A stretch of 63,478 nucleotides of DNA, the filler included, from Fonticula-like sp. SCN 57-25 (lineage: Eukaryota): the NCBI GenBank assembly GCA_001724245.1. It is 3 parts of 3 records of this genome, joined end to end, with 100 filler letters (N's around TTAATTAATTAA, not from the genome) between each part and the next. Parts side by side here need not be neighbours in the genome. Positions count along the whole stretch, not along the records: positions 21,329 to 44,958 come from MEDX01000085.1; 2 more parts are not named here. One strand, written 5' to 3'. The notes beneath the pieces were generated by a model. The model saw only the letters and a list, made by a program, of their open reading frames with translations. It was not told the origin of the DNA and ran no database searches. The position numbers and the translations under genes were made by a program. Position 1 is the first letter of the stretch. The number at the start of each line of letters is the position of its first letter. This document shows positions 21,229 through 59,019 of this stretch, one piece after another.

Positions 21229-21328
21229 NNNNNNNNNNNNNNNNNNNNNNNNNNNNNNNNNNNNNNNNNNNNTTAATTAATTAANNNNNNNNNNNNNNNN
21301 NNNNNNNNNNNNNNNNNNNNNNNNNNNN
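21229..21328. other. Artificial contig linker
   Basis: 44 N + TTAATTAATTAA (stops in all six frames) + 44 N. Confidence 0.97.
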
Positions 21329-21642: not shown

Positions 21643-23384
21643 ATGGACATGGGCGAGTTGACAATGGAGGAGCTGATGCGACAGCTTCGCATTGCCGAAG
21701 AGGAGAAGACGGCCGCCCAAGAAGAGAAGAAGGCTGCAGAGGAGCGCGAGAAGGCCGCCCAAGAAGAGAAGAAGGCTGCAGAGGAGCGCGAGAAGGCCGC
21801 CCAAGAAGAGAAGAAGGCCGCCCAGGAAGAGAAGAAGGCCGCCCAGGAAGAGAAGAAGGCCGAACAAGAAGCACGATTGGCTGCCGAGGCAAAGCTCGCC
21901 GACATAGGTACGTGTTGTTCCGACCTCCTCCTACCTTGCTTATGCGGGCATGGCCAGATGCCTCGGTCCTAGATGGACTGCCAGAACTTGGGGAGAAAAC
22001 CTATTCGACCGCCAGCGCTTCGGTCAATAAGGCTCATGCAAGCGCCAAAATCAAGCTAAGCACCTTCAACCTTTTGACCGTCGACCAGTACGTTGTTCAA
22101 CGCACCGGGCGTTCAGCCATCTGGGGCAACAAAAGAGATACTCGTCTCGTCTATTCGACCGAGGAGGACATCAGTCGCTTTGTGCAGGAAGTTCTACGGG
22201 ATGCGGTCAGTGCACTTCCCGCGCTGCAATCCGTAGAAGTGAGGATCGTGCCCGAGCTTAGTGCATTTGGCGAAAAAGCGGATCTGTGGGTGCTGGCTCG
22301 GCTCGGTGTACCCGTCGGTGTTGTTGAAGTCAAGAAGCCGCACGAGGCCATTCTGCAAAACGAGTCTGTGGCCGGACAGTTGCTGGACTACATGAAGCGC
22401 CTGCGGTCATTTTTTGGGCTCAGCGACATCTTTGGTATTGCGACGACCTACGAGGAGTGGCGTATTTTCTGGCTGAAGGACTGCGATGCTGCGGCCGCAA
22501 GCTGCTCAATGACAGGGGCGACAACGTCTGAGGCTGTACCGCTACAGGGCGTACCCGACATCCCGTCGTGGGGGGGGCGCGATGAAACTCCTGCTATGGA
22601 CATCGCTACGTCGTCGCCGCCGACCCCTGTCAAGGACCGCTTGGTGCACGCGGGAAACGTGCTTCGCTACAACGACCCCCAGCTTGTGCCCACCCTCCTG
22701 TCGGTGCTCATGAAGATGGTGTCATCACCGGTTAAACGAGCGCGCAATTTGGTGGATCCCGATCGCGAGTACATCGTGGTGAACAGCTCGAGCTGGTTTT
22801 GGACTCGACTTTTCGGCGATTTCAAGATCAATACGCGCTCGGCGATGCCGCGCACCGACGCCACATCGTTCATCTTGCTGGCCCATCTCGGCGACGGTGG
22901 CTTTGGTCGTGTGTGGTTGGCGGCTACGCACGGCGGCTCGTTATGCGTGATAAAGTTTGGCAAGGACGGGACCGCGTGGAACCCAGATCACGAGGCTCTC
23001 GTATGGAAGTCTGCGTGGAAACTGAATGCTCGCGTGCTGCAGCTCGCGGGACGCCGCGCTTTGCTCCTGCCATACCTTTTGACATGCCAACGAGCGGGGC
23101 CGACCGGCCCAGACGCGGTGGCGGTGCGACTCGCCACGGTGCGCGCCATCGAACGCATGGCTGCCGCTGGCTGGGAGCACACTGATCTAGCACGTCCGGA
23201 CAATGATCAGCCCAAGTGGGCACATGTCGGGTTATATAGGCAGGGCGGTGAGCTTAAAGCATTGCTCATCGACCTTGGCATCGTGCGTAAGGTGCTGAAG
23301 AGTGATGTAGAACGCGCTGGCGCAGTGGCGCGAATGCGAGCGGCACTTGGACTGGATGACCCCTCATATGATGGTACCTCTTAA
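21643..23384 (+). CDS. Crinkler/RHS(CR)-type protein: coiled-coil repeats, PD-(D/E)xK REase domain, divergent kinase domain
   Basis: Exon 1 (AAQEEKK repeats) joins in frame via intron 21908-21957; REase-like E..ADLWVL..VGVVEVKKP..GQLLDYM..FGIATTYEEWRIFW; kinase-like LGDGGFGRVW, CVIKF, HTDL..WAHVG, LIDLG. Confidence 0.7.
21700..21870 (+). repeat. 21-nt-unit coding tandem repeat (heptads AAQEEKK / AAEEREK)
   Basis: Repeated gaaggccgccca(a/g)gaagagaa and gaaggctgcagaggagcgcga units. Confidence 0.9.
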
Positions 23385-24013
23385 GCGGCACCCCCGTAGA
23401 TCCGGCAAAGAAGCAGGCGATCTGCACCAATTTGACATCATGGCTGCTCTGTGCAGGATCTTGCCCTGAAATCAAGCACTTTTGTTTATTTTGGTTGTAC
23501 TATACTATACTGTAGTTGTTCATTTAAGAGTCGAGACCACTGATTGCTATCAATAATAAGATTATTTTCGTTTAAAATATCACTTGGATTACAGTATGAG
23601 TAGTATAGTATGGGAGTTCAGCCCCTCGGTTCAGCCCCTGGGTACCCGCGTGCCCCTACCCGAAAGCGAAGCAAATACCGTATGAAATTCATGCCCGCCA
23701 AAAGTACACCCTACCCCAGTTCGGTGGGTATCACCGAATGAAAATAGCCAATTTTCCCATCCCTGCGCAACCCTCTTTTTTGATCACCCTTCAAGGTACC
23801 CCATCAGCCAAAAAGTCCAAAAACGCCGAGGCGCGTGTGTCATGTTCGGTCGCAATGACCGATCGAAATTCGTGTTATATGGGGTGTTGCCAAAAAATGA
23901 TGAAATAAAAAATGGTAAAGTTATTTCAGGTTGCCCCTCAAGTTGGCACAGTCGCAGCATCATGATCAAGTGCACTCCAAACTCAGACCCCCTGATTCAG
24001 CCCCTGTCCCCGA

Positions 24014-24049
24014 CCCTGACCCTGACCCTGACCCTGACCCTGACCCTGA
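24014..24049 (+). repeat. (CCCTGA)6 telomere-variant-like hexamer repeat
   Basis: Six perfect copies preceded by degenerate ccctgt/ccccga; reverse complement is TCAGGG. Confidence 0.85.
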
Positions 24050-25015: not shown

Positions 25016-26502
25016 ATGTCCTTCCGTGGAGGAGGCGGTCGCGGTGGTTTCGGCGGAGGCCGTGGAGGCGGCTTTAGCGGCGGGCGCGGCGGCGCTGGTG
25101 GCCGTGGTGGCTTTGGCGGCGGTCGCGGTGGCGGTCGCGGCGGAGGCCGCGGTGGATTCGGCGGTGGCAACCGCTACGAGGAAGGCCCACCTGCCGAGGT
25201 CATTGGTACGCCGCCTCTATCCTTTTCACGCCGATCCCGTTGGCACTTGCCGCTCTATCGTTCATTTGGCCCTTTATTGTTTGTCTATTGTGTTTGCTGC
25301 TGCATCTCTGCCGCATCCCTGCTGCATCTCTCGTGATTCCTCTTGATCCCCTCTTTCTGTTTCCTCCCTTTCTCATGCGCCTTGTCTGCCAACAGAGCTC
25401 GGCAAGCTTGAGCATCCCTGCGAGGGCGAGCTTGTGTGCAAGTCGACGAATGAAAAGATCCCGTACTTTAATGCGCCCGTGTACCTCAACGACAAGAATC
25501 AGATCGGCAAGGTCGAGGAGATCTTTGGCGCCACCAACGATGTGGTACGTTTCGGCGCTAATCATCCCCGCCATCTGCTTACGCCTCTTTCTCCGCAGCA
25601 CTTTACCGTGAAGCTCCAGGAGGGCTTTGTGGCGACGTCGTTCAAGAAGGGCGACTCGTTTTATGTCAGCACAGAAAAGCTCCTCCCATTGGCGCGCTTC
25701 CTCCCGCAGCCCAAGTCCGCCAAGGGTCCGTCTCACACCCTTTTTGTCCCCTTTTCTGACCACATGTCCTCTTGTTTTTCCTCTTCTAATGCTATTGCTA
25801 TTATCCTTGTGAATATCGCATGCGATTTTGTGCTCTTTTCCTCTCTTTTCTTGCTTGCTTTTCCGTCACAGTTGGCAAGCCTGCTGGTCGCGGCGGTGCG
25901 CGCGGCGGTTTCGGCGGCGGTCGCGGCGGCCGTGGCGGCTTTGGCGGCGGCCGTGGCGGCTTCAGCGGCGGTCGTGGCGGCTTTGGCGGCGACCGCGGCG
26001 GCTTCCGTGGCGGACGCGGCGGCGGTGCGCCCCGTGGCGGCAGCGGGTTCGGTCGCGGTGGTGGCGGCGGCGGGTTCGGGCGAGGCGGTAGCCGCGGTGC
26101 GTATTTTGGGAATATTGAGAGGGAAAGGAAAGGGAAAAATGGGTCAGTATGTGTCGTATGACTGTCATTCATGATCGTCTTTGATGTTGAAGATGAGTGG
26201 TATGAGTGTCATTGATGAGTGTCATTGATGATGATGAGTGTTATTGATGAGTATCATTGATGATAATGAGTGTTATTGATGATCACGAGTGTTATTGATG
26301 ATCATGAGTGTCATTGAGTGTCATTGATGATGATGAGTGTCCTTGATGGTTGTTATTGATGATGCTTTTGATACTTTTTTGATCATGTACTGCTGGTCAT
26401 GGTCAATGCTGATCATCAATACTATATGTGTTTGTATTCTTTCTTACACTATCCTTTACCTTTGCTGACTGTTCATTTCTAGGCGGACGCGGTGGCTACT
26501 AA
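25016..26502 (+). CDS. GAR1: H/ACA snoRNP subunit GAR1
   Basis: RGG termini, [59 protein letters not shown]; last mini-exon ends RGGY-stop. Confidence 0.95.
26190..26365 (+). repeat. Intronic minisatellite (gatgagtgt(c/t)att variants)
   Basis: Multiple degenerate tandem units in the last GAR1 intron (26097-26482). Confidence 0.8.
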
Positions 26503-28564: not shown

Positions 28565-29800
28565 ATGCTCCGGCATGTGCTTGTGATCTCCTCGAGCGGG
28601 CTCGTTCTGTTCCAGAAGCAGTTCCTGGAGGGCATTGCACAGCCTTCCTTGACGGGGTCCCTTTTAATCGCGCTTCAGAGCCTTTGTCGGCGCAGTGTTG
28701 GCCAGCCCGCATGCTATGTCGGCCTCTCTCATGGTGCGCCTCGGTAATGCTAGATCCCATGCCTGACGCTGCGTCGCTCTTTCTTTGCGAACCTCAGTGG
28801 GTGTAGGTCTTGCTGCGGACACGGACAAGTCTGGCGTCGTGTGCGCTGTCTTTGGCGATGCATCGTACGGCGGCGATCTGTTGATGCTGCTCGCGCGATC
28901 CGTGCTGGCCACATTCCTCCGCAAGTGCGCCGCCTGCTGCCTCTATTGATGCGCACTCACACGCGATGCCGACAGGTTCCGCGCACAGCTGTCGCAGCCG
29001 CTTGTTGACACGCGCGCTTACAACGGATTCCGGCAAGATCTGGCGGCGTGCTTTCGGAGCGCATCCCTGACGCTGATCGACGAAGGTGCGATCGGGATGC
29101 TGTGTGTGTAATTGCTCATTGCGCTCTTTTCTTAAAGTGCACGCGGCGCACCCGACGCTCGTCAACTGCGTGCTGATCCACGGGGATCGCGTGTCGCACG
29201 AGACGCGGCCGGGCAACGTTGACGTGCTCGGTGTCGTCGCCAACCTAAAGGCTGCATTCGATATTTCCGCAGACGCAAGTACGTTTATGGGAAATGAAAA
29301 CTGCAAACTGGTTTTGGTTTGCCAATGTGCAAACTCGCGTGCAATGTGGCGTGTTCCATTATATTATGTGCGATGTAGAGTGCAATTGCGTGCTTTGTGG
29401 TGTGGTCACGAGTGAACACTTACAACTTTCTTTTCCTACTGCAAACTGCAAACTCTCTCTCGCAAACTGCAAACTGACCCATTACTAGTGAGCTCGAGCA
29501 ATGACACTCCTCGCGAGATCTCGCTCCAGCTGTCGCACGACAGCGACGATCACAAGCTGCAGGGCGCGCGCGTCGGCATCTACGCGATCGCGCCTTTCTA
29601 CCTTGTACGTCCACGTGGCCACACATTGCAAACTGACGCCGGTTTGCAGGTCATTATTTCGCCCGCCTCGCTGGACCCGGCGGCGTGCCGGCAGACGGTG
29701 CTCAAGACGACGATGCGGCTGCGGCAAGGTGCGTTTTTTGGGTTTCCCGCGCGTTTTGGCTGACCACGTGGGCAGTGGCGGCGCTTTTGGCCGGATTTAG
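28565..29800 (+). CDS. Small multi-exon protein with N-terminal longin-like domain
   Basis: MLRHVLVISSSGLVLFQKQF..QPSLTGSLLIAL..YVGL beta-beta-alpha-beta pattern; about six canonical introns keep the frame. Confidence 0.5.
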
Positions 29801-30204
29801 CGGCTAAAGAGGCTTTTTTGTGCGCATTTCCTTATAGTATTGCTGGTATATCTTGTACAACACTCTTTAATACACCTTGTTGACCTTGAAAGTCATTAAG
29901 AAATTGAATAATATTATGAATAAGAAAATGGTCATACTTACGTCCATATGGGCCACGTGAAAGGCCTACATATCTTTATTTTTCTCTTTTCTTTCCTATT
30001 CAGACTGCTTCTTTTTCCCTTTCCATTCAATTATACACTACTTGTACCGTACTATAGAACATTCCGCATTGCGCCACACGAGACAAAACTTGCGTCAAAG
30101 TCACGTGACAATCATAAATATCACGTGATTTGTGATTTTTTTCCTTCTTTCCTTCGCTCGGTCTCCTGCGTGGTTGATCGTCCGATCGTTTTTGCGTCCC
30201 CGAC

Positions 30205-33200
30205 ATGTCTCAGTGGGAAGTCGTCGCGCCGCGCACGTACCTCCAGGAGGTGGCGGCCAACCCGCCGCCGGGCATGTACAGCATGCAGGCGACGCTCCCG
30301 CGCCTCCCCGTGCCCGATCTCGATGGCACCCTCGACAAGGTGCGCAGGCGGTTTTGCTCTCGGGATCACATGGGACATGAGGGGCAAATGTCAAAGTGTA
30401 TAGTGGAAAGTGTGGTCAAATAGTGGAATGAAAGTCAGGGAGGCATTTGGTCTATATTTAAGCCAAAAGTTGGTCGTGCTGTGCTTTGTGACTCGAGCCA
30501 ATGTGTTTCATCATGAGGCAGTGCGGGGATGGGGCGGCATGTCGCCCCGAATTGCACTCTAGTTTGCACTGCCCAATCTGCGTTCCACTCTGTGCCCAAT
30601 CTGAATTCGCATTCGTGTGTGTGTCTCTGATGATGATGCCATGTCCCGCGCCAATGCGGCGATTCCTTTTTCCATCGTGCCTAACATGCGTTTCCCGCAG
30701 TACCTCAAGAGCGTCGAGCCCGTCCTGACCCCCGAGGAGCTGGTCGCCACTCGCGCCGCCGTCGAAGAATTCCGCAAGCCCGATGGCATCGGCCGCCGCA
30801 CTCAGGAAAAGGTACGTGATTGATCCTCTGTTGGTGTGAAGATCTTTCTTCTCTGCTGCTGCATGTTCCCTTCTTCCTCTTGCTTCTGCTTGCTGATCCC
30901 CTTCTTTCCTCAGCTTCTTGCCCTTGAAGCGAGCCTCGCCCCCGCCGGCGAAAAGTCGTGGCTCGAGGACATTTGGCTCCAGTACGCGTACCACATCTGG
31001 CGCGATCCCATCGTGGTCACTTCCAACTGGTACTCTGTCTTTCGCGCCTCTCCCGCTGCTCTGTCGCACGATGTCAAGCAGGTGAGCCGTGCGACCGCCA
31101 TGGTGAGCAACATGGTGCAGTACAGGAACCTCGTCCTCAAGTACGTGGAAGAAGGGGAAGTGGAAGGGCAAGGAGAAGGGTAAAGGGAGATGAAGAGAAG
31201 AGGAAGGGTAAAGGGAGAGAAAAGGGCTATGGTAATATGGAAACATTACGGTAACAATACGGTAATGTGGTAATGATACAGTATTATGTCCATGTGGTAG
31301 TGATACTGTGTGCATACTGTGAGGTAAGGGTTACTATAGTAGTGGTAATAGTGGCAATAGTAAGGGTTACTGTAGTGAAATAGTGGTACTAGTAAGGGTT
31401 ACCGTAATGATGGTAGTAATAGTAAGGGTTACCGTATTATAGTAGTAATTGTAAGGGTTACTGTCATATGGTAATGGTTCCTGTAATATGGTAATGATAC
31501 TGTAATGACATGGTAACGATACCATGCCATCATACTACTACTACTACTAAATGTTCTACTACTACTACTACTACTACTACTACATGTTCTTTTCCTTCTT
31601 CTCCTTCTCCTTCTCCTTCTACTACTATCCTTCCACCCCCCCACTCACCCTTCTCCTCTAGGGAAGCCTCCCCCATTGACAAGGTGCGCGGCAAGCCCCT
31701 CTGCATGGACCAGTACTCCAAGATATTCGGCGTCACCCGCATCCCTGGCGAACACTGCGACTCTCTCCGCCACGTGGCCTTTAGTGAGTCACGTCATATT
31801 GTGGTGATGCGTCGTGATCAGATGTTTGCGATTGATGTGGTGGATGAGAGGGATGAGCCAATCGATGAGCTCATTCTGCAGGCGTACGTGAAGAAGTAGA
31901 AGTAGAAGGGGATAAGGGGGAATATGGGAAGATAAGGGGAGGGTTATGGTGGTTAAACTGAAAAAAGGAAGGGTTATTGTACATGTATTGGATGATGTGT
32001 AGGGTTATGGTAGTAGTAATGGTAATGGTAGTGGTGAATGAGTGTAATGGTAATGGTAATGGTAAAGATTACCGTATTGGTAATGGTATTGGTAATGGTA
32101 CCATGTTGTCATGTTGGTATTATACATGTCATGATGGTGTACTACTACCAGTATGGTACATGTACCATACTGGTAGTGTGTATGAGTACAAGTGTATGTG
32201 TATGAGTATGATTATGTGTATGAGTGTATTAGTATGTGTATATTACTCTTTTCTCTCTATTCTCTCTATTCTCTCTCTATTCCCTTCTCCTTCTCTTTCC
32301 CCTCCCACTCACCCACTTCTCCCCTCTCAGTCAATTAGAGTATGTGATGACCTCGACCGACTATGCCTGCGACCAACCCCCCATTCCCATCCTCACTGGC
32401 GAACAGAGGACCACGTGGTGGCGTGCACGTGAGGCCATTCGTACGCTCAGTGAGAGGAATGCTGGCAATCTGGATGTGATTGAGAGGGCGATGTTTGCGG
32501 TGGCATTGGATGATGCAAGTCCGTCTACGCGTGAAGAGGTATGAAGGGAGAAGGGGGGGGGTAAGGGGAAGGGGGGGGTGGAAGGAGAGAAAAAGGGACG
32601 AAAGAGAAGAAAAGAGAAGAAATGGGACAAAAGAGGGAAAAGAGGGAAAGTATAGTATTGTGTAGTATAGTATAGTATATGGTGTAGTATATGGTATAGT
32701 GTATAGTATAGTACATGGTATAGTAGTATGGTGTAGTATAGTATGGAACGTTGTATAGTATAGTATAGTATATGGTATAGTGTATGGTGTAGATAGTATA
32801 TGGTGTAGTATACTACACAGTATACTGTGTAGTATACTGTATGGTGTATGTGTGTAGTGTATGTGTGAATCGTATAATCATATGATCACGTGATCATATG
32901 AACACCCTTCATACATCATTCACTCATCCATCATATACTAACCCTTCCCTTCTTCCTCTTCTCCTTCTCCTTCTCCTCTACTAGATGGCCCGACTTCTCT
33001 TCCACAACTACTCTGGCCGCAACCGCTTCTACGACAAATCCTTCACCCTTGTCTTTTTCGCCAATGGCTGGTCAGGCATTAATGCCGAACATTCCCCTAT
33101 TGACGCACCCTCATTGGCACATGGTGGGGCACTGTTTGTGTCGTATATGGAGAGTGTGGCGCAGTATGTGAGGCTGCATGCGAGTGCTGGGAAGGGGGAG

Positions 33201-35326
33201 AGGCCGCGAGGAGTTGGTGTGCCGAAGAAGTTGGTTTGGGATGTGGATGAAGTGATTTCGGAGGTATGGAAGGAATGGGGTGGGGTAGGGGAAGAGAAGG
33301 GTAGTAGTAGTAGTATGTAGTATGTGGTAGTAGTAGTAGATGAACATGTATGTTATCACAAGTACTATGTACTTGTAGTAGTATGATAGACAGTATGTTG
33401 TCACAAGTACGTATGTACTTGTGGTAGTACAAGTAGAAAGTATGTTATCACAAGTACTGTGTACTTGTGGTAGTAGTACAATAACACATGTGTAGTGTAT
33501 TAGTACAAGTACATGAAATGTACTTGTAGTACTCTGTAGTATAGTGTGTATTGTATTGTATAGTGTATATTGTGTGTATATTGTAGTGTGTATGGTATGT
33601 ATAGTACTATAGTGTGTATAGTAGTAGTACTGTATGTACTCTATGTGTAGTACTATACTATACTATGGTGTGTATGGTCACTTTTGTTCTGTATGTCATT
33701 ATTCCTAACCACGTGGCCACATTCTTCCTCTTCTCTCTAATCACGTGACATAGGCTATTGCGAAGGCCCTCGTCAACGTGGCCGCGTTCATCGCCCCCTA
33801 CCAGCTCAACGTCCTCGAGTTCACCGACTATGGCTTTGAGGAAATCCGAAAGAGTGCGTCACGTGACACTGTCCACGTGGTTATACTCATCACGTGACAC
33901 AGTCAAGGTCAGTCCCGATGCGTTTGTCCAGATGGCCATCCAGCTGGCCTACTACAAGGCGCACGGCAAGTGCGTGCCGACCTATGAGGTGCGCAGTCAT
34001 CATTTGTCATTGTTATTAGTCACGTGATACTGATCATGTGATTTTGGTCACGTGATTAGTCTGCCCAAACGCGCATGTTCTTTCACGGTCGGACGGAGAA
34101 TGTGCGCACGTTGTCGAATGAGACTGTGGAGTTTGTAAAGACAATGGAGGACAAGGCGGCGGACGTACGAGAAGGAAAGGGGGGGTAAGGGGGGGTAAGG
34201 GAGAAGGGGGAGAGAGAGTAAAGGGAAAGAGAAGGAAAAGGAAGGAAGATGGAATGAATGTATGAGTGATTGATTCCCAATGTGTATATGGGCATGATGC
34301 ATGTGTGCATTACCCATATGCGCATATGGGCATGATGAATGTATGGGATTGTATGTGTGTGTATGATACATGTATGAGTATGATACATGTATGGTCCATT
34401 GCCCATATGGAGTGTATGTGTGTATGTGTATGATTCATGAGTATGATACATGTATGAGTATGATGTATGGTTCAATTACCCATATGCGCATATGGGCATG
34501 ACATACTACCCTTCTTATTCCTTCTATTCCCCTCTATTCATTACTTATCTAATGTCTATTATTAGAATGACACCAAGCTCGCCGCCCTCACCCGCGCAGT
34601 CAACGGCCACGTGGCCTACATGGTCGACTCCTCCACCGGCAAAGGCGCCGATCGCCACCTTCTCGCCCTCCGCGTTCTCATTGGCCAGTCTGGCGAGCAG
34701 CAGCCAATCATATTCACGGACCCGGCCTTTAGCAAGTCGATGCACTTTCAGCTGTCTACTAGCAACTTGACGCCTGCGCCAGAGTTCTTTGGTGGATATG
34801 GGCCCATGTATAATGATGGATATGGCGTGTGCTACGCGCTCAGGCCTTATGGGGTACGCAAAGAAGAGAAAAGGGAAATGATCTTGTGGTGATCGTGTGG
34901 TGATCGTGAAGATCATGAGGGTGAACGTGAATTGGGATTGGGTAAAGTGAATTCAAATTGGGTAAAGTGAAAGTAAATTGGGTAAAGTGAAAGTGAATTG
35001 GGTAAAGAGTGAATTTAAATTGGGAATGGGATTGATACCATATGATCACGTGATCATATGGTAGTGTGTTTGTCTATTTGGAGTCCATATTGGTCACTAT
35101 TTAGTATCTATTGATCATATTTACAATCTATTTGAATATCTATTATCTATTCATTGTTGTGTCTATTATGCTCTTCTTCAATGTGACTAATCACGTGACG
35201 TAGCTTTGGTTTAGCGTGACTGCGCACGGCAGCTGCCCTACCACTTCTGCCCCTCTTTTGATTGAGGCACTCAAGAGCAGCCTGGCCGACATTCGCGCGC
35301 TTTTTGTGCAAAAGAGCCAGCTGTAA
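30205..35326 (+). CDS. Carnitine O-acyltransferase with C-terminal PTS1-like SQL
   Basis: LPRLPVPDL, SWLEDIWLQYAY, PLCMDQY, NRFYDKS, catalytic NAEHSPID, SPDAFVQMAIQLAYY, FHGRTE, GKGADRHL, LSTS, GYGVCY; about 11 exons with long repeat-rich introns; ends QKSQL-stop. Confidence 0.9.
31141..35203 (+). repeat. Low-complexity and palindrome-filled expanded introns
   Basis: GA-rich, (GTA)n, (TAC)n, (TATAG)n and CT-rich tracts; perfect palindromes at 32144-32177, 32878-32901, 34313-34330, 34479-34496, 35036-35063. Confidence 0.9.
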
Positions 35327-36019
35327 GGCGGGAAATGTGGCGGGAAATGAGACAAGAAATGGCGCGAAATGAGACAAGAAAAGAAAAGAATAGAATAGAA
35401 AAGAAAAGAAAATTATATCAAAAGAGATATCAGATATGACAAAGATCAATAAAGACGCCTTCTTGCTAATAATTGATATGACGTATCACATATATCATAC
35501 ATGTCATAAAGGGATACTATATGGTGGCATGTGATACATAGAGGTGTGTATATATTGTATGTATGATGTCATATATGACATGAGAGTGATGGCATGTATG
35601 GGACATTCCAATGGAATGGCGTGCAGCATTCCTGTGAAGAAGTGCCATTTAGAGAAGAAATAATGGGACTTGTACCATTTAAATATGTGAATTGGGCATT
35701 GATGTACATGCGTGTGGCAGGCGTGTGAGTAATTACTCTTTATTATGAAGTTTTGATGTCCTTTTTTGGGTGGCGGGAATGGGCAAAAATGGCACTTTTT
35801 TGTCACTTTTCTCAATTACAAGTAAAAATAATGCATCATTCTTATCCAATTCTTGTTCGCCATAATGTGATGCATCTATCGGTACCATTTTCTTATTCAT
35901 TTACTCTTCTTTTGGCCATTTTACACATTCCATGTCCATTCCTCACTCTCTGATTGGTCAGAATCGATGACGTCAAATTTACAAATCACACATTTCCTTC
36001 CTTGTTGTGCCTACCCGCC

Positions 36020-38684
36020 ATGGACGACAATCCGTTTGGAGATCCGACGCCGGTCGCCCCCAAAGCCGCTGCGCCGGCCACCCCGCCGCCCGCCGCCAAG
36101 GCACCCACCGACCCCGACGCGCCGCTGCTCCCGCTGATCACAAAGATCCGCGAGATTGTCAAGACGACCGATGACAAGTTTGGAGGCGCGCAGCTTCGCC
36201 CTCTCCTGATGAAGAGCGGGATCCCCGTCGATCAGCTCAAGCAGGTGTGGGCGCTCGCCGACGTCAACAAGCGCGGCTCCCTCGACCTTGCCGAGCTCAA
36301 GCTCGCGCTGCGCCTCATTGCGCTCGCGCAGGACGGCCGCGCCATCGACCCCCAGGCCGCCGCCGCGTCACGTGACCTTGTGCCGCACTTTCCGTCGCTC
36401 GATGCGCTCGCTGCATCGGCCGCGGCTGGCGGCAGCGCCCCCGCCACCAACAACCGCACGAGCGTCATTTCCTCGTCCTCCTCTCCCGCCGGCCCCGCGC
36501 CGTCATCGTCGACATCGTCGCTCGCATCGCCGGCATCCCCCACGACGCATCGCAACTCGCTCGAGGTGCTCGAGAGCTTCCAGGAACTGCTCGATCGCGA
36601 GCACGTGACTGTGACTGTCGCCGAAAAGGGCACTGGAATGTTCTCTACGACCTTTTACACTGTCGTGTCACGTGCGCACGGGTCGACGGTGACGCGGCGG
36701 TACTCGGACTTTGACTGGCTGCACGAGGTGCTTCTCAAGCGGTATCCGTTCAGGCTCATCCCGGAGATGCCGGGCAAGAAGCTCATCAACAAGGGTGCGA
36801 CAGTGGTGTGGAAGAGTGGGAAGTGTGGGCAAGAGTGGGCATGGCGCATCGTGGGATCATGTGGGGATCATCAGCATCATGTCTCATGTCTCATGTCTCA
36901 TGTCCATGATCATGATCATGATCATGAAGATGTGAAACTCAATGTGCAATATGCAAACTGGCTGTGCAATGAGCAAAAGTATGCTTTTGTGTCGTACTGC
37001 AATGTGCAAACTCCCTTATATGTTACATGTTCAACCTATCTCTGATATATCACTGTACTTGTCTCTGTCTATGTGTGTGTGTGTTCGTGATGATTGAACC
37101 AGTATCTGCAAACTGAACCACCCGCAAACTGCAAACTGACCCAATTTCCCTTTCGCTTCCCATAGAGGATGACGCGTTTGTTGAGCAGCGCCGCCGCGGC
37201 CTCGTCCGCTTCCTCGAGTTCGCCGGCCGCCACCCCGTCCTCCGCAACGACGAGACCGTCATCACATTCCTACGCGAAGAAAACACCGACACCTTTGCCG
37301 CCTTTAAAAAGCACAAGTCATCTCAGGCGATCGAGGAATTTACGTTCAACCCGATCGGCCTGACATCCAAGGAGCACACGCCGACGGATGCGGATGAGGC
37401 GCTGAGAATCGCGAGGGACAAGTTGCCGGCATTGGTCATGACGCTGGGAAAGTATATTGAGACTGTTGATGCGGTGGTCAAGAGGCTGCAGAGTGCGTGG
37501 GAAGGGGCGTGGGAATAGGAGGGAAGTAGGGAAAAGAATAGGAAAAGTGTGTCTGGGGTGGAATCAGGGGTGGAAGAGTGTCATGGAATACACAGTGGGA
37601 GAGGAGTAATACTATGTTGAGTGGGATAACACTCATTGGCCACGTGGACGTATGTACTGACGTGATCGTTTTTTTTCTTAGCGGATGCGGCCGACTTTAT
37701 GAAGATGGCACAGATGCAGCAGTACGCACACTGATATTGCGTGTATCGTGACAGTAAAGATTACCGTAACGATACATGAATGACGTAATGATACTAATCA
37801 CGTGACATTTAGGCTGTTTATTGAGTCCGAGTATCCGCCCACGTGGGTGTCGTCGTCGAGCGCGCCCAAGCAGCTCCTCAGCCGCTTTGAGGAATATGCA
37901 AAGCTGCATGCCACTCTGGTACGTACCATATTGGCCACGTGGTTATATCGATCACGTGGGAATATTCACGTGATAACATGACTGACCACGTGGCTTTGTA
38001 GGCGACTGGCGGGATGGACTCTTTGGTCGAGTCTCTTCGCCACCACCTGACCGTCATCCTCGCCTTCCAGGTACGCATCACGTGATTTGAGTAAAGGGAT
38101 GACAATGGCATGTATGTTTTGTGTCACGTGTTCAGTATGGTGCATTTATCACGTGGCCATTTGATATATTTTTTTGTTTGTCCTTGAGCAAGTATTGGTA
38201 CCATGGCGTAGTGTGATCTACCGTACACGTGACAAAATATTCATTTTCTCACGTGACACACATTACCTTCCATCTCACGTGACCAAATTACTTACCATCT
38301 CACGTGACCATATAATAGGAACTTTTGCTTCGCCGTCAGCAAACCACCCAAAAAGAGGTCGTCACGTACAACCGCCGCGTGGTCGCGAGCAAGCAGCGCC
38401 TTTCCCAATTGGCCGCCGCCGGCAAATCAGGACGCGCCCTCGAGATCGTCCAAGAAGAGATCGATCGTGATGAACGTGAGGCGCAACTTATCCAAAAGCG
38501 GGATGAATTTGCGACTTTCTGCCTATGGAAAGAGCTGCAGTTTTTCAACCACTTGAAGGCGTACTTTTCGATTAATGTGCTTGAGCTGGTGAGGGTCAGA
38601 TTGCAGTTTGCAGAGGGGCAGGTGGCGCTGTTGAGGCAGATGAAGCCGCTCGCGGCGGACCTGCCCACAAGTGGGTTTTATTAG
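36020..38684 (+). CDS. SNX8: Sorting nexin SNX8/Mvp1-like: EH-like domain, PX and BAR
   Basis: EH-like ([36 protein letters not shown]), PX ([48 protein letters not shown]), BAR end ([15 protein letters not shown]). Confidence 0.82.
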
Positions 38685-39628
38685 GCCACGTGGAGCATAT
38701 CATATCATATCATGTATGGCACAGCCAGTCAGCCGCAGGGCAATATACTTCATTCCAGTAATTGTGAATAGTAGGGATAGGGGTGGGTCACGTGGGAGGG
38801 GAAAAGAGGAAAAAGGGTTTTGATTATGGTCACGTGGGAAGTATTTGTACGTACATGAGTTGTCCACGTGGGTATTACAGTTGAGTGTGTATCATAATTA
38901 TCTATGTTATGGGTGTGTGGACAAGTACTACTTGCCCTAGATAGGCTGCGATTGAGCACATTGATATTCTGTCCACGTGACCATATTCCTTTCCCAATGT
39001 CCACGTGACACAAAAGCAGAGTTTCCATGCTTTATTTATAGATATTATGGAGATTACTCGTATGAACAAAAGGATGCACTTCAAAAAGAAATCGGTACTC
39101 GCAAGCAACGCACAAATAGATAGATAGAAACCGGGGTGGCCTATTACCGCCCCCCTGAACACGTATATCATAATCAGATGGAAGAAGAGAAGAGCAGAAT
39201 CGATCTCGAAAAGAGGACACAAAAAAACCCGTCTGGAAAGCAATAGAGAAGAAAAGCCAAAATAGCCACTGACGACACGTGGCCGTGAACCTTGAAAACA
39301 TGACTCATGCTGATGACCATGTATAGCGCGCACTCGATATTTCCCGCGCAATTACCGTACAACTCTCCAAACGACCCATGCTGCGTTGCAATAAACCCGA
39401 CACTATGGCACTACAGAGGCAGCAATACGGCGAAAAACATGAAATTACCGTCATATTACGGTCATTACCATGCCATTACCATGTCATTACCATCACCGAT
39501 AATAGCGGATAACCACCGACCATTACCGTAATTACCATGAAATAACCACAATTTTCTTCTCTTTTCCTCTTTTCCTCTTCTTCTCCTCCTCCTCTTCCCC
39601 TTCACTTTTCCCGCCATATTCCCCCCTC

Positions 39629-44958: not shown

Positions 44959-45058
44959 NNNNNNNNNNNNNNNNNNNNNNNNNNNNNNNNNNNNNNNNNN
45001 NNTTAATTAATTAANNNNNNNNNNNNNNNNNNNNNNNNNNNNNNNNNNNNNNNNNNNN
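44959..45058. other. Artificial contig linker
   Basis: Same N44-TTAATTAATTAA-N44 structure as at 21229. Confidence 0.97.
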
Positions 45059-57997: not shown

Positions 57998-59019
57998 TGT
58001 GAATAAGCTGCTCAAATATAAAAGGACAAAGGTAAGCCTCCAGCAAACAGCACGCTAAACAGAAACTGCAGCAAGTTTGACAACAATCGCCTCCTCAATC
58101 GGCCAAACAACGAAAAAAAAACAATGGCCAGGATGCCATCTTGTTTATCACACAGTTGATTGTGCACGGATAATGTAGCCGACAGACACCCAAAAACAAT
58201 CGCCTATTTCCCACCATTATCTCCTCTCCTTCTCCACCCGCGCCTTCCCTCTGCCCGCACCCGCCCGCTGCGCCCAAACAAAAACACGGCCGCGTACCAA
58301 AAAACGAACTTTTCAGTCGACGCTCGGGAAAGGGGAACGGAAAAGGTGAGGTGGCCGTTGAGAAAAAATGCCTTTTTTTCCTTTCAAAGGAGCGATGCCA
58401 TTGGTCGAAAATTGATGACAATGATCAGATGCTGGTTAGATGGCGATTAACAAGGGCCGTGTTTCACTTGTGACGTCATTGAGGAGAACGTGGGAAGACG
58501 CGCCAATGCTATGCGACGGCGCGGCGTTTCAGAAGTGGCGCGCAAATATAAAGAAGAGAAAGATGGACAAGTGATGGAGTATGTACAGAGTGAGCGGCGT
58601 AACATATATGCTCAATTGGTGCGCCTCTACTCGCGACAATAGCGGCGCAAATGATTGTCAAAAACTGCGAAACATTGCCCATATGCCCACCTATGCAAAG
58701 ACATGCATACAATAGAAAAAGGCATGCTAATGCGGTGCAACAGTGCCAAACAAATATACTTTTAACCTTCTGTATGCGCAATTGCGCAATGACATGAACA
58801 AATGTTTATGGGAACAAGAATGGGTAATACAAGACAAAACAGCTTTTCGGTTCGAGGCAAGCGCCCCGCTCGCCAAAGTGCGGCGTGCTTGACTAGGATC
58901 CAACAATGTAGCAAATAAAAGCAAACGGGATTAGGCATGAGAGTTGATAGACGCTTCCTGTCACTACTCGGCAGGCGGCGGCCTTTATGAATTCACTTGT
59001 GCTGACTCGAAAGGCGACG

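Follow-up and report, generated by a model that had tools for sequence, protein, structure and literature searches.

The DNA analyzed here is a stretch of 63,478 nucleotides (the window) from the assembly of Fonticula-like sp. SCN 57-25 (GCA_001724245.1), in which three contigs were joined artificially by N linkers (Table 1); adjacency across these linkers is meaningless. All counts reported below refer to this one 63-kb window of a metagenome bin. Its middle contig carries a gene for a carnitine/choline O-acyltransferase in which six of the nine introns are several hundred nucleotides long, and these six long introns, numbered 1 to 6 in the order of transcription, are the subject of this work. 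They are inflated by their own micro- and minisatellites and are not copies of one mobile element, and they have a purine-rich head behind the donor, a C-poor middle and, to varying degrees, a pyrimidine-rich tail.

The acyltransferase gene and its introns

Once nine GT..AG stretches are removed, the ATG at 30641 opens an uninterrupted frame of 602 codons that ends with the stop codon at 35325-35327. When translated singly, five of the exons matched the Pfam profile PF00755 (Carn_acyltransf) at profile positions 54-118, 126-189, 196-265, 278-355, and 456-546, in colinear order, and the three small exons situated between matched ones add about 97 residues where 100 positions of the profile are left. 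As the exons account for the profile, the long stretches hide no coding sequence. Retention of any one of the six would lead to an in-frame stop within 2-19 codons. A query of the ESM Atlas with one exon again returned the acyltransferase family, and a scan of metagenome contigs with a 96-residue exon gave 249 pattern matches, none of which was a relative. Based on reading frame and homology, we assign the six long stretches as genuine spliceosomal GT-AG introns. Their coordinates are exactly those proposed in a first-pass annotation of the window, and all six start with GT and end with AG.

Table 1. Features of the acyltransferase locus, further introns discussed in the text and the linkers of the window (G4, G-quadruplex; UTR, untranslated region).
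Feature	Coordinates	Strand	Description
Carnitine/choline O-acyltransferase gene	30641..35327	+	10 exons, 9 introns, 602 codons; C-terminus ...KSQL
Long intron 1	31141..31661	+	521 nt; phase 2; donor GTACGT; purine head 31145-31232; 32/59-nt minisatellite 31324-31473; (TAC)17 31533-31583; pyrimidine tail 31577-31642; branch-like CTCAC 15 nt before intron end
Long intron 2	31884..32330	+	447 nt; phase 2; donor GTACGT; G4 motif 31908-31943; (GGTAAT)n 32003-32100; 34-nt palindrome 32144-32177; GTATGA-type repeats 32177-32245; pyrimidine tail 32243-32329
Long intron 3	32539..32984	+	446 nt; phase 0; donor GTATGA; purine tract 32531-32655 with G4 motif 32546-32578; GTATAG-type array 32649-32867; 22-nt palindrome 32879-32900; CTAAC branch motif; pyrimidine tail 32934-32986
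Long intron 4	33264..33753	+	490 nt; phase 0; donor GTATGG; G4 motif 33277-33301; (GTA)n 33301-33339; 46-nt minisatellite 33333-33476; GT-rich arrays 33539-33636; tail with CTAAT and two CACGTG
Long intron 5	34165..34565	+	401 nt; phase 0; donor GTACGA; purine tract 34165-34262 with G4 motif 34179-34210; 18-nt palindrome 34313-34330 and 34479-34496; GTATGA-type arrays 34325-34469; C/T tail
Long intron 6	34854..35203	+	350 nt; phase 0; donor GTACGC; short purine head; 11-nt and 20-nt arrays 34879-35024; 28-nt palindrome 35036-35063; T-rich tail ending CTAATCACGTGACGTAG; weakest case
Ordinary intron, same gene	30812..30913	+	102 nt; pyrimidine-rich throughout, without purine head
Short intron, same gene	33854..33902	+	49 nt; three CACGTG motifs
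Short intron, same gene	33989..34059	+	71 nt; two CACGTG motifs
Long intron, Gar1-domain gene	26097..26482	+	GTGCGT; purine-rich head; 13/19/32-nt C-poor arrays; pyrimidine tail; CTGAC
Intron, EH/PX-domain gene	37493..37681	+	189 nt; GTGCGT; G4 motif 37499-37531; C-poor head, 88% purine; T-rich tail
Probable 5' UTR intron	58010..58297	-	about 288 nt; donor GTACGC at 58297; G4/purine-rich head 58275-58237; tail with CTTAC ... CAG just before ATG at about 57996
Window linkers	21229-21328 and 44959-45058		N44-TTAATTAATTAA-N44; three contigs joined artificially

For comparison with ordinary introns, we used our own exon/intron Viterbi model with a length penalty and a neutral intron emission (no composition bias). 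This model is crude; it splits the acyltransferase gene, and many of its predicted introns longer than 100 nt are doubtful. It predicted 104 introns, 68 of which are at most 80 nt long with a median of 53 nt, in agreement with the first-pass description of a short-intron norm from which the six introns of 350-521 nt depart.

Composition of the long introns

The most obvious property of the long introns is the G/A tract which directly follows each donor, as had been pointed out at first pass. The purine fraction at intron positions 7-56 is 0.92, 0.88, 0.96, 0.80, 0.94, and 0.70 for introns 1 to 6, compared with about 37% purine at the heads of the short introns (0.26-0.44 at positions 7-24, n = 68). 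The tails of the long introns are C/T-rich and G-poor, with pyrimidine fractions in the last 50 nt of 0.84, 0.90, 0.86, 0.66, 0.74, and 0.60. The expectation that most of these introns close with a C/T tract therefore holds strongly for three and moderately for two; it is weak for intron 6. The short introns already have a value of about 0.6. At a threshold of at least 90% over 40 nt, purine and pyrimidine tracts cluster in the acyltransferase gene, in which four of the plus-strand purine tracts lie, as do three of the six real pyrimidine tracts (four further rows of that list were artefacts of the N linkers).

Between head and tail the long introns are poor in C, with mostly 0-12% C in the middle deciles and a composition of A 0.30, C 0.08, G 0.26, and T 0.36 over the middle 60%. 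GTA is the top trinucleotide of these middles and TT is strongly under-represented, which is the reverse of the situation in short introns. The third codon positions of the acyltransferase gene have C at 0.39 and G at 0.32, and the short introns have C at 0.27 and G at 0.23. Since C is depleted in neither, the C depletion of the long introns is no general strand bias.

The acyltransferase gene is the extreme case of a length-linked rule and not an isolated oddity. Among the introns of the window that passed simple credibility filters, the purine content of the head rises with intron length, a relation that had been put forward for checking at first pass (Spearman rho 0.45, p = 3e-5, n = 79), and it does so also when the six long introns are left out (rho 0.31, p = 0.009, n = 73). 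Nine other introns of at least 150 nt, which occur on both strands and in all three contigs, have a GC skew of +0.45 at the head and -0.44 at the tail, compared with -0.09 and -0.12 for 59 short ones. Three introns of other genes with a similar layout are listed in Table 1. That of the Gar1-domain gene gave a minimum free energy (MFE) z-score of -4.8 (folded as 26096-26483). The minus-strand intron 58010..58297 is absent from the gene-model prediction and its 3' end was read by eye, and we assign it from sequence as a probable 5' UTR intron.

Repeats and palindromes

Arrays detected by Tandem Repeats Finder (TRF) make up 1464 of the 2655 nt of the six introns (55%; 34-75% per intron), compared with 2347 of 60647 nt (3.9%) elsewhere in the window. 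The repeat units differ between the introns, being 32/59 nt, 6/30 nt, 12/17/57 nt, 46 nt, 17 nt, and 20 nt for introns 1 to 6. The (TAC)17 array of intron 1, with GTA-type repeats upstream, was present as first described, as were the internal perfect palindromes of introns 2, 5, and 6 (Table 1) and another at 32807-32838.

A BLAST search of the six long introns and the Gar1-gene intron against the 63-kb window found no family common to the introns, which bears out the first-pass view that their filler differs and does not represent one transposon. The search returned only low-complexity matches, namely (CTTCTC)n plus one weak GTATAG match, and one perfect 22-nt palindrome, CATATGATCACGTGATCATATG, common to introns 3 (32879-32900) and 6 (35039-35060). 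The 16-nt core of this palindrome was matched in none of 100 shuffles in the window search, and in a metagenome collection the sole match to the 22-mer was a contig of the same locus (L001, see below).

Contigs from other loci that fit the long introns in part have the same order of donor, purine tract, and GTATGA- or GTATAG-type repeats. At 32140-32313 the contig depth in a possible source run (X1) rises from about 15 to 107, and many of the partly fitting contigs end there. The rise in depth and these contigs together imply that the GTATGA-type repeats are multi-copy and common in the genome.

Indices of the type used for repeat-induced point mutation (RIP) were also calculated for the intron bodies (TpA/ApT 1.23; (CpA+TpG)/(ApC+GpT) 0.84). 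Both are within the RIP-positive range of Neurospora; the values are driven by the GTA repeats, and we did not take them as evidence of RIP.

Splice signals

The donors of the short introns follow the consensus GT[AG]CG[CT]; position +4 is C in 93% of them and position +5 is G in 99% (n = 68). The usual donor consensus, GTAAGT, has A at +4. The C at this position looks unusual and may reflect a changed register of pairing with U1/U6. A branch-like CTNAY motif occurs in 59 of the 68 short introns, and its median distance to the 3' end is 16 nt.

In the long introns the first CTNAY is found at positions 504/521, 425/447, 385/446, 442/490, 350/401, and 334/350 (introns 1 to 6), that is, within the last 17-62 nt of each intron. 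The motif is absent from all 2259 interior nucleotides of the six introns, in which 7.1 would be expected from shuffles of their own composition, 17.4 at the composition of short introns and 8.97 from shuffles within 40-nt blocks, with a fraction of 0.001 of 2000 of the latter having none. The consensus donor GT[AG]CG occurs once inside the six long introns.

There are 12 canonical G4 motifs in the window on both strands combined, and five of them begin 7-25 nt after a long-intron donor on the sense strand (31908, 32546, 33277, 34179, and 37499). By the criterion (G>=3 N1-7)x3 G>=3 on the non-template strand within 100 nt of the donor, motifs were found in four of the six long introns, plus the introns with donors at 37493 and 58297; introns 1 and 6 have no canonical motif. 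Of 668 GT[AG][CT]G sites in the window, six have a G4 start within 30 nt, and five of the six are long-intron donors, the sixth being that at 58297 on the minus strand.

The hexamer CACGTG occurs 67 times in the window (22.9 expected), with 40 of the 67 occurrences within about 10 kb (29600-39300). Single short introns hold three to four copies, examples being 33854-33902, 37919-38001, and 38071-38319. Three introns (ending at 33753, 35203, and about 37812) end with CTAATCACGTGAC followed by ATAG, GTAG, or ATTTAG. The cluster could be one of transcription-factor sites, a branch-site variant (GTGAC), or a repeat remnant.

Predicted head-tail pairing

The first-pass annotation had proposed that the ends of the long introns could base-pair and thereby bring the splice sites together. 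MFE folds of each intron contain 29-57 pairs between its first and last quarters, compared with means of 12-18 in dinucleotide shuffles, and the ensemble expectation is 25-59 head-tail pairs per intron. The MFE z-scores against the dinucleotide shuffles are -6.7, -2.3, -10.6, -5.2, -3.9, and -0.9 for introns 1 to 6. End-to-end pairing is therefore predicted for all six introns and folding is better than in the shuffles for five, while intron 6 folds no better than chance. The outcome named at first pass as a refutation, folding no better than shuffles and no pairing of the ends, was thus not observed in five of the six.

Shuffles within tenths of each intron, which keep the composition gradient, had as many end pairs as the real introns or more (means 24-63), and the z-scores against them are -4.2, -0.4, -4.9, -2.6, -2.2, and -0.9. 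These shuffles removed only part of the energy excess, and the internal palindromes can account for the rest. When all heads and tails were combined as duplexes in a 6 x 6 matrix, heads paired with the tails of their own introns (cognate; -78.6 to -34.9 kcal/mol) had a mean energy of -57.0 kcal/mol, compared with -58.8 kcal/mol for non-cognate combinations. Duplexes between the tail of one intron and the head of the next, across an exon, had energies of -59.6, -95.4, -61.3, -45.3, and -38.0 kcal/mol, and the strongest in the matrix (-95.4 kcal/mol) was that of the intron 2 tail with the intron 3 head. When introns 1-4 were folded together (2.7 kb), this cross-exon helix formed with 70 pairs, along with one of 41 pairs between the intron 2 head and the intron 3 tail, and the cognate helices were displaced. 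By these models, head-tail pairing is a consequence of composition and is not cognate-specific; only the order of transcription would favor cognate pairing.

The structural distance from the 5' to the 3' splice site is 3-15, compared with shuffle medians of 4-17. This graph distance has no discriminating power because shuffles also bring the ends close, and MFE models give close ends for any long RNA. The predicted helix starts about 5-20 nt from the donor in the MFE folds and covers the branch motif and pyrimidine tract; for introns 1-5 the probability of being unpaired is 0.36-0.58 for the branch motif and 0.21-0.48 for the last 30 nt. The structural interpretation made at first pass is thus supported in part: the ends are predicted to pair, but the pairing is generic.

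Assembly of the long introns

The first-pass annotation had named assembly artefact as an outcome that would undo the pattern. Contigs of the possible source run X1 cover the locus with 0 differences, with introns 4, 5, and 6 each whole in a single contig, and one further run of the same study and one of another study provided pieces, including intron heads, with 0-5 differences each. A public metagenome contig of 1655 bp (L001), which was assembled separately and was pulled out by the 22-nt palindrome as probe, corresponds to 32104-33758 with two substitutions and no indel and contains introns 3 and 4 whole. Introns 3-6 are therefore reproduced in full by contigs other than the window's own. 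In intron 1, no independent contig among those compared bridges the (TAC)n/(CTTCTC)n stretch at 31524-31632, so that the copy number given for it is that of the window alone. Although the window consists of three contigs with N linkers, and contigs of public runs break at 31524-31632 and 32645-32785, the close agreement between separate assemblies makes it scarcely credible that the long introns are an artefact of low-complexity reads in a metagenome bin.

Other features of the window and the likely host

The window also encodes a MARK/Par-1 kinase whose top match, at 717 bits, is a protein labelled Chytriomyces hyalinus; the next matches score about 400-414 bits, and those that are named are largely from other chytrids. 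Forkhead and MyTH4-RhoGAP domains in the window are compatible with an opisthokont. The host is most likely a chytrid fungus, as judged by these similarities. The stop codons of the acyltransferase and kinase genes both lie within donor-like motifs, GTAAGG or GTGAGA. Rfam at gathering thresholds gave no matches in the window, and tRNAs were likewise absent; within the introns, neither a snoRNA nor any other known RNA family was detected. Two other repeats in the window are (CCCTGA)8 at 24002-24049, which is the complement of the telomere-like hexamer TCAGGG and is internal to its contig, and a 21-nt unit present in 8.5 copies at 21694-21871 (also reported by TRF as a 42-nt unit in 3.7 copies), apparently within a predicted coding region.

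Origin of the long introns

In the account that we prefer, and which in our estimation is quite possible, the long introns are intron-specific repeat expansions which persist only where no competing splice signals arise, with the helix as a by-product. Local amplification of tandem repeats has inflated introns of the ~53-nt type seven- to ten-fold, and the arrays obey a rule of position and strand: those behind the donor are G/A-only, often with G-runs, those of the body C-poor and GTA-type, and those before the branch site and acceptor C/T-only and G-poor. Both core signals of this organism need C (donor GT[AG]CG[CT], branch CTNAY) and the 3' splice site needs AG, and a spliceosome accustomed to short introns might tolerate a long one only if it offered no competing donor, branch site, or acceptor context. 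Repeats free of C in the head and body and free of G in the tail would be the types able to grow harmlessly. Given such a position-dependent composition, complementarity of head and tail and a long predicted purine-pyrimidine helix follow automatically. The intron status, the repeats, the composition rule with its dependence on length, the lack of interior branch motifs, and the generic pairing are results of the analysis; that the pattern owes its shape to counter-selection of cryptic splice signals and not to any requirement for structure is what we infer. Directional expansion had been the second option of the first-pass annotation, and with arrays over half of the introns and head purine content rising with length, it fits better than bridging.

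Several observations weigh against this explanation. Avoidance of signals explains sequence that is free of C; it does not explain heads that are poor in T and rich in G-runs. The bodies contain 37 copies of GTATG, a rare donor type with which introns 3 and 4 begin, and weak donor-like motifs are therefore not avoided. Another long intron, 36795-37165, holds five interior CTNAY motifs, and because repeats reduce the number of independent positions, the P values for the absence of the motif are overstated. Purine tracts followed by C-poor GGTAAT-type repeats, resembling the intron heads, also come after the stop codons of the acyltransferase gene (35328-35420, plus strand) and of the kinase gene (minus strand, from 39631 down to about 39400); no splicing is expected at either. 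Lastly, the introns counted here were predicted over 63 kb with our own crude model.

The alternative closest to the first-pass proposal is that of functional bridged introns, in which each head pairs with its own tail co-transcriptionally and shortens the effective distance between splice sites for a short-intron spliceosome. The number of predicted end pairs, the z-scores of -2.3 or below in five of six introns, the duplex energies of -35 to -79 kcal/mol, and the increase of polarity with intron length would all fit, transcription order would favor the cognate partner, and precedents have been described in fish (Lin et al., 2016; PMC4691745) and in the zipper stems of yeast (PMC12350175). 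We consider it doubtful, though, because the duplexes have no cognate specificity, cross-exon partners are equally good and win in the 2.7-kb fold, shuffles that preserve composition pair equally, the splice-site distance is not below that of shuffles, the branch motif and last 30 nt of introns 1-5 would be mostly paired, and intron 6 folds at chance level. Pairing also bears on the idea that G-runs or an RNA G4 after the donor, together with an extended polypyrimidine tract, enhance the recognition of distant or weak sites, the body being neutral filler. The position of five G4 motifs directly behind long-intron donors, the rarity of G4-followed sites elsewhere (the sixth of the 668 looks like the donor of a 5' UTR intron), and the use of the rare GTATG donor by introns 3 and 4 favor this idea, yet a head paired with its tail excludes a quadruplex, introns 1 and 6 lack the canonical motif, the counts are small and were looked at post hoc, and PMC9065059 reports no such enrichment outside mammals and birds. 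We regard such an enhancer as distinctly unlikely.

A neutral strand-asymmetric process, such as transcription-linked slippage or the formation of R-loop-prone purine tracts, which would create and orient the repeats in any non-coding DNA that is transcribed, with selection keeping only the pyrimidine tail, would account for the tracts and GGTAAT-type repeats after the two stop codons, for the change from purine-rich to pyrimidine-rich in the spacer between two plus-strand genes (35328-36020), and for the fact that all arrays have G on the sense strand whichever DNA strand the gene is on; the order of donor, purine tract, and GTATGA-type repeats in partly fitting contigs from other loci, with the rise in X1 depth, is in line with it too. 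Such a process nonetheless appears unlikely, since synonymous sites and short introns of the same transcripts show no C depletion, the branch motif is rarer than local composition predicts, and a switch from G-rich to C-rich within one transcription unit needs more than one bias. Degenerate copies of an introner-like element or miniature inverted-repeat transposable element (MITE), with purine and pyrimidine tracts as terminal inverted repeats, would explain the complementary ends, and PMC3609843 describes fungal introner-like elements as longer than regular introns with stable predicted structures. This origin is very improbable, as the introns form no sequence family in the 63-kb window (low-complexity matches and one 22-nt palindrome only), cognate ends match no better than non-cognate ones, no target-site duplication was seen by eye at the six junctions, and more than half of the sequence consists of local tandem arrays.

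If expansion limited by splice signals operates throughout the genome, it would provide a simple rule by which an organism of minimal introns tolerates long ones: the filler must lack the bases that splice signals need. A bolder reading, of which we are skeptical, is that a zoosporic fungus with introns of about 50 nt has evolved a modular design for its rare long introns, made up of a purine head with G-runs, a satellite body lacking donor and branch signals, and a pyrimidine tail free of G, in which head and tail zip together during transcription, or the head forms a quadruplex, in the service of an intron-definition spliceosome acting on introns ten-fold longer. If true, repeat-bridged introns, so far known from fish, would have arisen independently in a fungus, and the generic complementarity would make exon skipping and circular RNAs regulatable in genes with consecutive introns of this kind. 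If genome-wide, the pattern would also allow one to ask, in a natural setting other than vertebrates or budding yeast, whether repeat-made helices or G-runs help splice-site pairing. On the practical side, the locus illustrates that composition by itself can produce a conspicuous predicted helix between the ends of an intron, so that non-cognate, cross-exon, and locally shuffled controls are needed before an intron is called structured.

Comparison with known systems

We found no account of long introns with purine heads and pyrimidine tails in chytrids in a search of full-text literature, supplements being outside that search. Among the close counterparts are the zebrafish introns of the (AC)m-(GT)n type; according to Lin et al. 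(2016; PMC4691745), fish introns with AC/GT ends need a bridging helix and do not need U2AF2. As in those introns, there are complementary simple repeats at opposite ends and a predicted bridging hairpin, and repeats that arise by slippage and are not conserved as sequence. The hairpin is, by prediction, more stable than shuffles in five of the six introns here, which is also a feature of the zebrafish system. However, the repeats here are GAAGGG-type in the heads and CTTCTC-type in the tails and not AC and GT, the pyrimidine tract is present rather than replaced, and pairing across the intron but not across the exon, as described for zebrafish, was not found in the duplex matrix or the 2.7-kb fold.

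That paper defines a second class, (GGG)m-(CCC)n, by at least three GGG in the first 40 nt and at least three CCC in the last 40 nt (PMC4691745). The counts for introns 1 to 6 are 3, 2, 7, 4, 5, and 1 for GGG and 3, 4, 1, 0, 1, and 0 for CCC, so that only intron 1 reaches both thresholds. G triplets after the 5' splice site, and C triplets before the 3' splice site in introns 1-2, are shared with this class; unlike in it, most of the tail sequence is CT-rich and the helices depend largely on A-U and G-U pairs.

Zipper stems of yeast are likewise found in a fungus with bimodal intron lengths and bring the donor near the branch region, and they have linkers of 42-85 nt that leave the signals accessible (PMC12350175). 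The helix predicted here, as read from the MFE fold and not by the procedure of PMC12350175, would start a few nucleotides past the donor and cover the branch motif and tract. Enrichment of G4 motifs after 5' splice sites is reported for mammals and birds, as absent elsewhere and as strongest in short introns (Georgakopoulos-Soares et al., 2022; PMC9065059). The introns described here resemble those in having a canonical non-template G4 motif within tens of nucleotides of the donor, including non-consensus donors, and differ in that they are from a fungus and that the motifs are in long introns.

Fungal introner-like elements are multi-copy sequence families that are longer than regular introns and have stable predicted folds (PMC3609843). 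Unlike them, the six long introns share no family, as determined by BLAST within the 63-kb window. What the six introns have in common with micro- and minisatellite expansion is the property that defines it, a large share of tandem arrays (55% compared with 3.9% in the rest of the window).

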